Below are positions 33,067 to 40,101 of a DNA stretch of 64,000 bases, one piece after another. The DNA is from Spongospora subterranea f. sp. subterranea (lineage: Eukaryota): assembly GCA_049724395.1 (NCBI GenBank), contig JAUGWO010000060.1:248001-312000 (forward strand). Reading direction: 5' to 3'. Positions within the stretch are counted from its first letter, which is position 1. The number at the start of each line of letters is the position of its first letter. Below the pieces are notes generated by a model. That model saw only the letters and a list, made by a program, of their open reading frames with translations. It was not told the DNA's origin and did not search any database. The position numbers were made by a program, and so were the translations under genes.

Positions 33067-36000
33067 ATGGCAGATCAGCCTATTACCCCATCTAATACTT
33101 TGGATGTCACCCGTTCGACCAGATCCATTCGTAACATCCGGTCGCAAAGTGGAGCATGCGGTGATTCTCACCGGCGTTTATGTATGTTGACACATTACAG
33201 CTCGTTTTCGTCAATTGACACGAATTGCCGTTTAGCTGACATCGACGAAGAGGATGACGAACACTTAGGAAGCGCATCATTGCGTTATGCGTCTTTTAGG
33301 ATAACGAAACATCATCGTTCAGTTTCGGTTGCTGTCAAATCGGATAAAAAATTGGCGAACCAGGATGTATCTGTCAACAGATTCTTAGCCCCTCCTATAG
33401 CACAAGCTAGAGCAAGCTCTCATCTCGAGCCACAAGATATGGATGACATTGAAACCGAATTTGACGATAATTCTGCAATTGAAGTCGATCCTGACAACTT
33501 CGATGCAGCATTACCAATTTCGATGGCAGACGATAATGACGAAACATCTGAAAGGGGGTCGATATTCGGATCAATAAGAGATGCTGTCACAGCAAGTGTT
33601 CGTATGGCAATGGATTCCCGATTGGCGGTTCGTCGGAACCGTCGTAGGATGTTTCGCTCTTTACAGAAGGGATTGGTTGTTTCAAACCTAGGAACTCCTA
33701 GCTCATTCTCCGATGCTGGGGCATCAGGTCTTTCACCTGACAGTTTGAAACACGATGCTGCGGCGGGAACCACGGACCATCGTAACACCCCAACCAAGAA
33801 CGTTTTCGATCACAAAAACTTCCGGCAATGCTTGAGGCATCCGCAATTGAAGCAATTAGGCGTCATCGAAGTCAAACGACTTTGGTGCGCTCTGCTTTAC
33901 TTGATTGAAGAGAAAGGGGTATAATCATCATCAGTCAAGCAATGTTGCTAGTGGAATGACGATCCGTATGACATGATCAGGTTGAAACGTTTCTGCGTTC
34001 CTACGTTGTCTCTACTGACAGCAAGGACATGACGTCTGTTGAAACAGCGCTACAGCGCAGCCATCGTTTCTGTATGTTTCATCACCTGGATTGCCTTGTG
34101 GGAATACGCTGATTAACAACGTATAAAGCGGCGTCAGGAGATGTTCAAGCAATGGTGGCCCCGAGTCTGGAAGGCCTACTCCGACAACAAACGCTATCCA
34201 GAAAAGCGGATGGCACTGGTAGTGGTCATCGCCATAGCAGATCGTCTTTACCGAAGCTCGTGGCACACCATTCTGTGCCAATGCAGAACATGACGGTCGC
34301 GCGTAATCCAAATAACCTGGATTTTCGTAGAGCGTCCGTTGACGTTGTTGAGAACGCCACCATTATGGACGCCCTGGGTATTTCATAGGGCCATTTTTCG
34401 ATAATTTCTGCAAACACGGTTTATGTAGGCTTCAACCATGACACTATTGCCGCAATGGTTTCTCTAGAATTCCGCGCAAGGGAAACTCTGCAGTTCCAGC
34501 GTGTTTTTGAGCAAATCTTTCAAAAAGAGCTGGATAAGACCCAGTCGACTCTACCTCTTCCACCTGTTATCGCCGTTCTGCCTTCGGAAAAAAGACTATA
34601 CAAAAATCTTTGTGCATTTCTGTTTGCCTCGATGGATACAGAGGAAGGTGGTAGTAGGTTTGTATAACATCGTTAAAATCCTACAGGCATATTTAAATGT
34701 TTCAGGTATATGATGTCGTTAACACATACAGCATTGTCCTATCTCCGATCAATTGAGGAATCGGAAAGCCCCCGAGCATCCAAGTAATGGGTACTCTGCG
34801 ATACAGTATTTCACAATGACCATTTTGTACAGAGGGTTTATCAACAAGATAGACAATTATCTTGCTCCTTTGCTTTTCCGGGAATTCGCGTCCCCATCTG
34901 AGGTACTGTTCATAAAAGTTGTTGCTCAAGGCTAAGGTAACTAAACTGTTTAGCAAATGACGGCAACGCAAACCAATCCCCTCACAAAACGATTCGCGGG
35001 ACTTTCGTACTCATCAATTCGTGATGAAACAGCAGCAGCGAGTACCCAGACTGGCAAATCTGGATCTTATGCGCCACCAATTTCTCCAAATTTATCGATG
35101 CCGGTCAAAAGAATAATGTGTTTTGAGATACTACTTGTATTATGCGGTCTTTTTGCCTTGACGTTATCGTGGTGGTTTCTTTACCCACCGGCTATTGCAT
35201 CATCCTTTTCCCGATATGGATCCCAAAGAGCCTCCAGAATCAGTTCTTCGCTAATCAAACACAGGTAACTGAAAAATCACGGCAGTGCTATCCCTGACCA
35301 ATATGGGTGATTGATTCGCTTCTCCCTTACTGCAGTATAGCTTCAGAACTCGACCTATTGCTCCCAATAGATGTTGTCGATGAAGTTATAAGCACCGAAG
35401 ATTTTATGCCCGCTGAGCCTTACTTATTTCAAATGACAAAAGGGTCAGGGTTGATAGGCGCCGCGTGGGATGTATATTCCTGCCACAGATTCTTTCGTTA
35501 TCGCTAATGTTTCTTCGGGATTTAGCACTGTGGATTTTATAGAAAAAAACAGACATAAGTCTAGCTGCATGATATTTCAGTCAAATGATCTACAAACTCG
35601 GCTGAAATCAACTCAGGAAAATGTATCGTGTTCCGATGTTCTTTTGACTCAAGTTATAACTTTGGACACATCTGCAATAATCACAGCAAATGGTGTGAAT
35701 GGTATTTTGATAACAAAAAGCGTGATATCTACCTCTGGAGAGTTAGTTATTCTCGGACAATACTTTGACAAGAGACGAATGATCAGGTGCTGGAAATTGG
35801 TTGGCTTTGTTTGTAATTCTGAATGACTCTCTAGGATGATAGGGTTGATGAATACACGATATAACGAGGCGGTTGCAATCATCGATGTGGCGTCGAAAAA
35901 TGTTGTTGCCATGATCGGCAATGAGGGTATCGACGCCGCTGATCAATCTCGGTCAGATAATCATCTAGACATTACAAAGACAGTAGTTAGGGGAGTTTTC

Positions 36001-39000: not shown

Positions 39001-40101
39001 CCACCCGAAAGCATCGATGGCGTGTGTGGATGAAAGAGAATGTCTTTGAGACACGCTCTGATTGGTGGAGGAAACTCATAGAACTGTCGCTGATTGTGGA
39101 GCTGGCATTCGCTTGCCAATATGGCCTCTCAGTTGATATCGTCAACTTAGACCGTATATTCAACTGCTTTATGTTGTTTTTCTCATTGGAGATGATCGTG
39201 AAGCTCGCGGTCTATGGAGTGCACGATGTTAGTGGAGTTGATAGCTTGGTTGAACAAACGGGCGAACTCTGACAATATTTTACTGCTCTGTAGTTCCTAT
39301 TTCATGCTGATCCTGGCGCAAGCATGTTTGAGGTAATCGATTTTCCTTGGAAAACAATTGGGTATGCTGAGTCAAAGACTTCAGAGAAGATTCGATTACA
39401 TCGTGGTCTTTTCAAGTCTGACAACTTTTTTCGCACACCATTGGTGGCATGGAAATTTCAACAGTAATTGGAAATTGTTTGTTATATAGAGAATTGACAT
39501 GCGGTTTGATAGCCTATTTACCTGGTCCAGATGATGATTCGCTGCGTTTACTCCAGTTGCTTCCAATTCTACGAATATTTTCCCAGGTTAGTTGGAACAG
39601 AGAGGAAGCAGAAACCATTACTAAATCAGATTTTAGGTCAAAATCATCAGGCACGTTGTCACCACATTCTTAAGATCAGCTCGCGTTTTTTTCAATCTGT
39701 TTTTCCTGCTCCTAATCGTGACGGACATATACGCCTGCATTGGAGTGTATCTCTACAACGGAAAGCTAATCAACGCCGTTAACCCAGAAGCGAACTTTGA
39801 AAAACACTCGAACGCCTTCGTGGTCCTGATACAATGCCTGTATGTCATAATGCTGCTTGCGTAGTGTTATAGCCACTGAGATATATATTTCAGAGTGCAG
39901 CAAGATTGGCACAGCATCATGTACGATGTAATATATGCATCAGGATGGGTTTCCTCCATTTACTTTATATCGTTCATCTTTTTCATCTCCATTCTCTTCA
40001 CCAACCTGTTCTTGGGAATAATATTATCCTTATTCAGCAAGATCGTACAACAGAAACGAGTGTCTTCCGCCACAATGAGGAAGGCAGTTCTGGAAAATTA
40101 G
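33067..40101 (+). CDS. Two-pore-channel-like protein (2x6TM with central EF hands) with N-terminal TM-Cache-TM sensor module(s), many exons
   Basis: TPC domain I S1 (YLLLSHNL...FFEEP), S4 (PLRPFILI), pore FVFASTADNFSDVI; EF hands AFILIDVDQSGGISLEEF and MFNEIDANGDGQMDVHEF; domain II pore NFEKHSNAFVVLIQCLVQQDWHSIM and S6 YFISFIFFISILFTNLFLGII; upstream dCache-like EQWY...YWSP...GVVVIDFSM. Confidence 0.78.

Follow-up and report, generated by a model that had tools for sequence, protein, structure and literature searches.

A gene joining predicted sensor modules to a two-pore channel

Characterization of a 64,000-nt window of the Spongospora subterranea f. sp. subterranea genome (contig JAUGWO010000060.1, positions 248,001 to 312,000) revealed a compact, intron-rich eukaryotic gene on the plus strand whose product combines two sensor-like outer modules with a two-pore channel (TPC). 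The locus (33067..40101, +; all coordinates are those of the window) runs from a start at 33067 to a stop at 40101 as one open frame of 1931 amino acids (aa) in 24 coding exons, separated by 23 GT..AG introns of 48-71 nt each. Its protein is laid out as a cytosolic N-tail, two modules each consisting of an outer domain between two transmembrane (TM) helices, a conserved linker, and a two-repeat channel with two EF hands (Table 1). It is collinear end to end with a 1903-aa ortholog from Plasmodiophora brassicae (CEP03700.1, PBRA_003307; XXQ37098.1 is likewise 1903 aa). The stretches quoted in the first-pass annotation, made from the letters alone, were found in place: TM3 begins at 36262, the WY motif occupies 36762-36791, and TM4 is split by the intron at 37257-37306.

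Six of the 15 public sequencing runs listed were aligned to the locus, comprising two DNA runs (X1, X2) and four RNA-type runs (X3, X5, X6, X8) that represent two samples (X3 and X6 one, X5 and X8 the other); the latter were classed as RNA from their GT..AG joints, no run being on record as RNA. Both DNA runs cross 34450-37900 as one unspliced piece. In the RNA-type contigs, 22 of the 23 introns were confirmed as spliced joints, 15 in the first alignment and seven more in the second. The sole exception is intron 8, whose retention would produce an in-frame stop; the single contig there reads into the intron.

Window base 35467 is missing from both DNA runs and from RNA run X3. With this base kept, the model contains 68 stops, and once it is removed there is no internal stop. 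These data rule out a true frameshift and point to an assembly error, a conclusion that holds even if either DNA run was the source of the window, since both lack the base. The weak intron or frameshift at 35400-35470, previously regarded as the weakest link of the model, is therefore superfluous, one extra assembly base being sufficient. Relative to both DNA runs, the window assembly carries small insertions (two bases in the intron at 34914, one coding base at 35467), so other apparent frameshifts in the window may be errors too.

Table 1. Features of the sensor-channel gene in window coordinates
Feature	Position	Strand	Basis
Whole gene	33067..40101	+	24 coding exons, 1931 aa once base 35467 is removed; collinear with P. 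brassicae CEP03700.1
Cytosolic N-terminal region, aa 1-558	33067..35112	+	P. brassicae alignment
TM1	35113..35181	+	Hydropathy
Outer domain 1, 254 aa, likely degenerate Cache-type	35182..36063	+	ESM Atlas 0.94-0.95 (ortholog); no profile match
Intron 8	35265-35335	+	Sole intron without a spliced joint; inferred from frame and an apparent P. brassicae intron at the same place
Extra assembly base	35467..35467	+	Missing from X1, X2 (DNA) and X3 (RNA)
TM2	36064..36132	+	Hydropathy
TM3	36262..36321	+	Hydropathy
Outer domain 2, 267 aa, dCache_1-like; predicted pocket positions W1043-Y1044, R1058, D1085	36322..37223	+	hmmsearch, hhalign, ESM Atlas
TM4, split by intron 37257-37306	37224..37345	+	Joint in X3
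Cytosolic linker, conserved basic helix SAQSWRRKR, no Met	37346..37579	+	53% identical to ortholog; aligns with Mesostigma
Channel repeat I and pre-S1 helices, filter TADNF, intron 37620-37685	37580..38666	+	Pfam Ion_trans; joint in X6
Two canonical EF hands	38718..38906	+	Pfam EF-hand_7, E 1.2e-11; both loops kept in ortholog
Channel repeat II; filter VQQDW; two S4 arginines at a spacing of nine residues	39045..40050	+	Pfam Ion_trans

Sensor and channel are joined in one polypeptide

Transcript contigs cross the junction between the second outer module and the channel. An X3 contig is spliced from 37256 to 37307 and continues to 37600; an X6 contig from the same sample begins at 37569, shares a 32-base overlap with it, splices 37619 to 37686 and continues to 37922. 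Together with the single frame and the collinear ortholog, these joints bear out the earlier proposal of one polypeptide: the sensor-channel fusion is real. The proposed phase-1 intron at about 37635-37685 kept its acceptor side. Its donor at 37635 was dropped, because the 37619/37686 joint and the P. brassicae alignment both place the intron start 15 bases earlier, at 37620.

We rejected two independent genes as an explanation, since the introns of 50 and 66 nt at the junction flank a conserved coding exon that offers no start codon. No methionine lies between aa 1172 and 1344, and none there is common with the ortholog, so a complete stand-alone TPC would be left without a start. Met1344 itself sits within S1, and the ortholog residue is isoleucine.

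Homologues in Plasmodiophora and Mesostigma

Identity to the ortholog is unevenly distributed: the channel (52-58%), the linker (53%) and an N-terminal domain (54%) stand well above outer domains 1 and 2 (24% and 32%). The N-terminal domain (aa 231-500, about 33800-34890), which is as strongly conserved as the pore, belongs to no known family; three conserved blocks lie within 33556-34890 (+), and neither a meaningful Pfam or PDB match nor a counterpart in the Mesostigma protein described below was found.

An HMMER search with exon 12 against 1.84 billion representatives returned two matches, one of them in the P. brassicae protein cluster. Word-index protein searches gave no match for exon 12 among 537 candidates or for exon 17 among 38 candidates, and none of the 150 and 437 pattern matches of two metagenome scans proved to be a relative. 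Residues 1000-1903 of the ortholog were compared only with those 7979 candidates, 1046-3331 aa long, that had the most words in common with them; this limited set yielded four matches, led by Mv14183 (P0011; 2296 aa) of Mesostigma viride at 203 bits, the next being a Cav3 at 91 bits. In Mv14183 the TM helices and outer domains follow one another as they do in the window protein, and the two proteins can be aligned from TM4 to the end of repeat I (27%, E 7e-39). Mesostigma is a free-living flagellate alga with the same layout, and the architecture is therefore not a specialization for root exudates. The Mv14183 filters, SGENY and VGEDW, carry glutamate in both repeats and are more Cav-like than the phytomyxid pair; only its first EF hand is detectable.

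Within the P. brassicae cluster, one sequence (P0002) matches the ortholog without a break over residues 607-1496, a stretch that starts in module 1 and reaches the first pore. Unnamed fragments of this cluster run into foreign tails at the positions of window introns 5 and 8, as open reading frames (ORFs) of genomic DNA would, and we infer that P0002 is a single genomic ORF; P. brassicae would then join sensor and channel without splicing. In one P. brassicae annotation the ortholog is broken up into SPQ99664.1 and SPQ99665.1 (P0004, P0006; residues 1-717 and 1122-1903); two others hold a single 1903-aa protein. Standard annotation thus hides the architecture, the ortholog being either split in two or filed as an "EF-hand domain-containing protein".

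The channel part is a TPC with acidic filters

Domain analysis revealed that both repeats pass the Pfam cut-off for Ion_trans and that the EF-hand pair passes its own; NCBIfam returned a single weak match, to an EF hand, and a PDB sequence search with exon 17 gave none. The channel part of the ortholog aligns with Arabidopsis TPC1 (AtTPC1) as one stretch over both repeats (E 7.5e-16), and with voltage-gated calcium (Cav) channels only repeat by repeat. Plant TPC1 (PDB 5dqq, 5e1j) has the same two six-TM repeats with an EF-hand pair between them, in agreement with the first-pass assignment to a TPC-type channel with two EF hands.

Unlike plant TPC1, and unlike TPCs with their short cytosolic N-terminus free of added domains, the Spongospora protein bears about 1290 extra N-terminal residues, with four additional TM helices and two outer domains. 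With the register set by the following tryptophan, its filters TADNF and VQQDW align with the Cav filters TMEGW, TGEDW and QEDW and are acidic. They depart from the non-acidic filters of canonical TPC1-3, having an aspartate in repeat I and QQD in repeat II, where plants have MGN and animals VNN according to the available text of PMC11085791. Arginines are scarce in S4, with one in repeat I and only two in repeat II, fewer there than in plant TPC1; in both window and ortholog the repeat II helix reads R..Q..P..R rather than showing the every-third spacing of canonical TPC1-3. From the acidic filter and the arginine-poor S4 helices, we infer Ca2+ permeability and weak voltage dependence. Ahead of the pore, the linker helix SAQSWRRKR (37469-37513 (+)), which is kept in P. 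brassicae and, less strictly, in Mesostigma, bears what we take to be a resemblance to an IQ-type calmodulin-binding motif.

The outer domains resemble Cache sensors

Each outer domain, as judged from hydropathy, fills the stretch between two TM helices, and it holds two glycosylation sequons; occupation of such a stretch was used as a Cache criterion, following the accessible part of PMC4822843. We built a Cache profile from 73 of 120 bacterial loci with a YDPRxRPWY motif, the others falling short of an open frame or flank, and stripped its TM columns before testing. All 12 tested training sequences (of the 73) match dCache_1, ten of them above the cut-off.

Outer domain 2 of the window protein matched the TM-free profile at 17.4 bits (hmmsearch, E 1.3e-7 for one sequence), and none of 500 shuffles did as well (best 3.6). 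Profile-profile comparison of domain 2 from three sequences reached 95% (hhalign, E 3.6e-8) over 148 columns, from the WY motif to the last strand, with a score of 54.3 against 20.5 for the best of 30 shuffles and 12.9 for the reversed profile (0/30 shuffles as good). This remote homology spans the distal and proximal subdomains. In the ESM Atlas, module 2 of the ortholog fell among Cache clusters at 0.96, with 10/10 of its best named matches in one family or clan, and module 1 scored 0.94-0.95, with 9/10 in one family or clan; these scores refer to ortholog fragments that include TM helices, are uncalibrated for parts and were obtained without a control. The first Mesostigma module also matched the Cache profile (hhalign 94%, 0/30 shuffles as good).

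Module 2 thus very probably adopts a Cache fold. Domain 1 of the phytomyxids reached 0.6% by hhalign (3/30 shuffles as good), and its similarity to the ortholog exceeds that of 300/300 shuffles; a Cache fold is likely here too, as suggested by the language-model scores, which are its only support. Of the two dCache modules initially proposed, the second was accordingly recovered by both profile and Atlas comparison, and the first probably stands on the Atlas score. AlphaFold gave low-confidence models (mean pLDDT, its per-residue confidence, 35.8 with one sequence and 40.4 with three), and PDB sequence searches with the sensor found no match. No similarity was detected between modules 1 and 2, or in direct comparison of either with the Mesostigma modules; a tandem duplication is therefore not supported.

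The predicted pocket departs from the amino-acid motif

The DPRxRPWY pattern quoted in the first-pass annotation is matched in part, the window reading LNPINEQWY. At the six positions of the dCache_1AA motif, Y-x4-R-x-W-Y ... Y ... D, as given in the portion of PMC8915833 available, the window has L, E, W, Y, R and D, and the ortholog L, Q, W, F, R and D. Only W, Y and D (3/6) are kept in the window, the first Y being replaced by L, the R by E and the second Y by R, and an amino-acid-type pocket is not supported. Amine sensors have likewise lost the first Y and the R, although their second position is still aromatic (bioRxiv 2023.04.06.535858, in part); neither the amino-acid nor, as far as that text shows, the amine motif is intact here.

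A ligand would probably bind in some way other than the standard amino-acid mode. The arginine at the second Y position and the aspartate are invariant in 3/3 homologues that differ by about 70%. As a speculation, this relocated arginine, facing the aspartate, could hold a zwitterion.

A possible mechanism and its alternatives

We favor, at a probability of roughly 0.55, a single polypeptide in which two outward-facing predicted Cache modules gate or tune an EF-hand two-pore cation channel in response to a small molecule on the outer side. Two chains would dimerize as TPCs do, and a ligand in module 2 would shift TM4 in the manner of bacterial Cache receptors, a movement that would be relayed by the conserved linker to the gate and the pre-S1 helices. 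With so few arginines, the S4 helices would exert little voltage control; Ca2+ would be one of the cations admitted by the acidic filter, and cytosolic Ca2+ would feed back on the channel by way of the EF hands. The accessible texts describe signaling by bacterial dCache_1 through its C-terminal helix (PMC8915833) and a TPC dimer with EF-hand gating (PMC12839299).

Several observations weigh against this proposal. The Atlas scores carry the limits stated above. No Pfam Cache match was obtained on 18 window pieces, the whole ortholog or the Mesostigma protein, none reaching the gathering score of dCache_1 (PF02743). Our own profile misses module 1 of both phytomyxids and module 2 of Mesostigma (hhalign about 1%), and ortholog module 2 alone fails it (hmmsearch, 0.9 bits, 25/500 shuffles as good). 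The outer domains are, at the identities given above, the least conserved folded parts. On the transcript side, no single contig spans the whole gene, the joints 37256/37307 and 37619/37686 are represented by one contig each from a single sample, the long spliced contig of X5 and X8 covers only about 37750-40119 (beginning at 37748 and 37770), and the upstream contigs of these runs, among those listed, are unspliced through introns 10 or 12.

The profile results bear on the idea that the outer domains are not Cache folds at all and that the matches reflect a TM-flanked layout and a few chance motifs. The lack of a Pfam or PDB sequence match would fit it, but the profile was free of TM columns and still covered domain 2 over 148 columns, far above the best shuffle, and the ten best Atlas matches with a family all share one family or clan, which makes this account very improbable. 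Only slightly better placed, and still improbable, is a minor fusion whose main product would be a shorter, channel-only transcript with an internal start near 37750. The X5 and X8 contigs of one sample begin there, with introns kept in the listed contigs upstream, and one P. brassicae annotation splits the gene; yet this contig pattern fits 3' bias as well as a short isoform, contig depth being blind to transcript ends, so contig data cannot separate the two. The first methionine available (aa 1344) lies inside S1 and is isoleucine in the ortholog, X3 and X6 cover the gene lengthwise with overlapping contigs that bridge the junction, and two other P. brassicae annotations hold one 1903-aa protein.

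A weightier competitor, though in our view unlikely, takes the Cache-like modules as a built-in auxiliary subunit in the manner of alpha2delta or CACHD1, serving folding, trafficking or protein contacts while cytosolic Ca2+ or lipids gate the pore. In the available part of PMC8915833, the eukaryotic dCache_1 proteins known to act at channels are subunits of this kind, and the lost amino-acid motif, the fast divergence of the outer domains and the two canonical EF hands would suit this role. It accounts poorly for the invariant arginine and aspartate at the pocket positions, for modules flanked by TM helices as in bacterial receptors, and for a post-TM4 linker conserved as far as Mesostigma. 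It is also conceivable, on a tentative footing, that the ligand-sensing channel resides in an internal membrane (vacuole or endolysosome) with its sensors reading the lumen; this differs from the favored reading in location only, so their shares overlap. TPCs are organellar as a rule (PMC12839299) and the diatom channel TPCL is found at the vacuole (PMC11085791), as far as these texts could be consulted. The window N-tail contains no acidic dileucine motif, and the ortholog has none anywhere, which is weak evidence against an internal location.

Beyond the favored ligand-gated channel lies a broader and more doubtful proposition, in which two-pore channels of the cell surface or the flagellum, gated directly by bacterial-type Cache sensors, form an ancient, undescribed class of ligand-gated, Ca2+-permeable channels common to Rhizaria and green algae, and the phytomyxid member is a zoospore receptor that turns a host-derived chemical into a Ca2+ signal for chemotaxis. 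Spongospora zoospores swim to glutamine and Ca2+-channel blockers stop their chemotaxis (PMC8921600); the available text of that study names no receptor. A chemotaxis role for the gene is a hypothesis; the gene is a candidate receptor for zoospore chemotaxis, even though the pocket is without the standard amino-acid motif.

Relation to known channels and sensors

The acidic filters recall TPCR channels of unicellular eukaryotes, known here by secondary description. Both TPCR and diatom TPCL combine two repeats with filters that are Cav-like or contain aspartate (PMC4278181, PMC12839299, PMC11085791); these secondary descriptions, the sole basis of comparison, mention no sensor modules in either, and TPCL is described as being without EF hands. 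On the sensor side, bacterial dCache_1 receptors, such as PctA-type amino-acid sensors and amine sensors, share the TM-flanked outer domain of about 260 aa, but deliver their output through a chemotaxis, kinase or cyclase domain, whereas the output here is a channel pore. Alpha2delta, a Cav subunit, and CACHD1 carry Cache domains that act on a Cav-like pore. They are separate subunits with a VWA insertion, which the available text of PMC8915833 reports in all eukaryotic dCache_1 proteins found; the present protein has no VWA match, and its domains share a chain with the pore. The nearest precedent found for a fusion of Cache and ion channel is that of prokaryotic pentameric ligand-gated channels with an N-terminal Cache domain (PMC549065, in part), which have an unrelated pore family and a ligand-binding domain of their own, whereas the pore here belongs to the voltage-gated superfamily.

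No description of a Cache domain fused to a two-pore channel appeared among the literature matches listed, a search to which subscription journals and the primary TPCR paper were out of reach, and the accessions led to no paper. Neither a survey of channels in 623 genomes (PMC12749960) nor a diatom channel survey (PMC11085791) uses the word "Cache" in its main text. Six supplements of PMC8915833 contain no Plasmodiophora, Spongospora or Ion_trans entry, and among the "mesostigma" rows listed there, the two of six shown are mites. We regard this channel architecture, whose parts are all of known kinds, as conserved and apparently undescribed.

Known ligand-gated channels use few kinds of binding domain. 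If the favored reading is true, a pore of the voltage-gated superfamily under Cache control would extend that list by one, and a bacterial chemoreceptor sensor would be linked to eukaryotic Ca2+ signaling within a single chain; were gating shown, this would be a new class of ligand-gated channel.

Neighboring genes

The genes around the locus encode an XPG-I domain protein (29986-31710, -) and a PPR protein (24958-26739, +) upstream and a class I (Tyr/Trp) tRNA synthetase (about 40640-42400, +) downstream, with no sign of a functional cluster among these three. Farther along the window, two paralogous ORFs at 55106-55834 (-, 243 aa) and 58397-59260 (-, 288 aa) gave no Pfam match; they share near-identical hydrophobic N-termini resembling signal peptides and are candidate secreted proteins.

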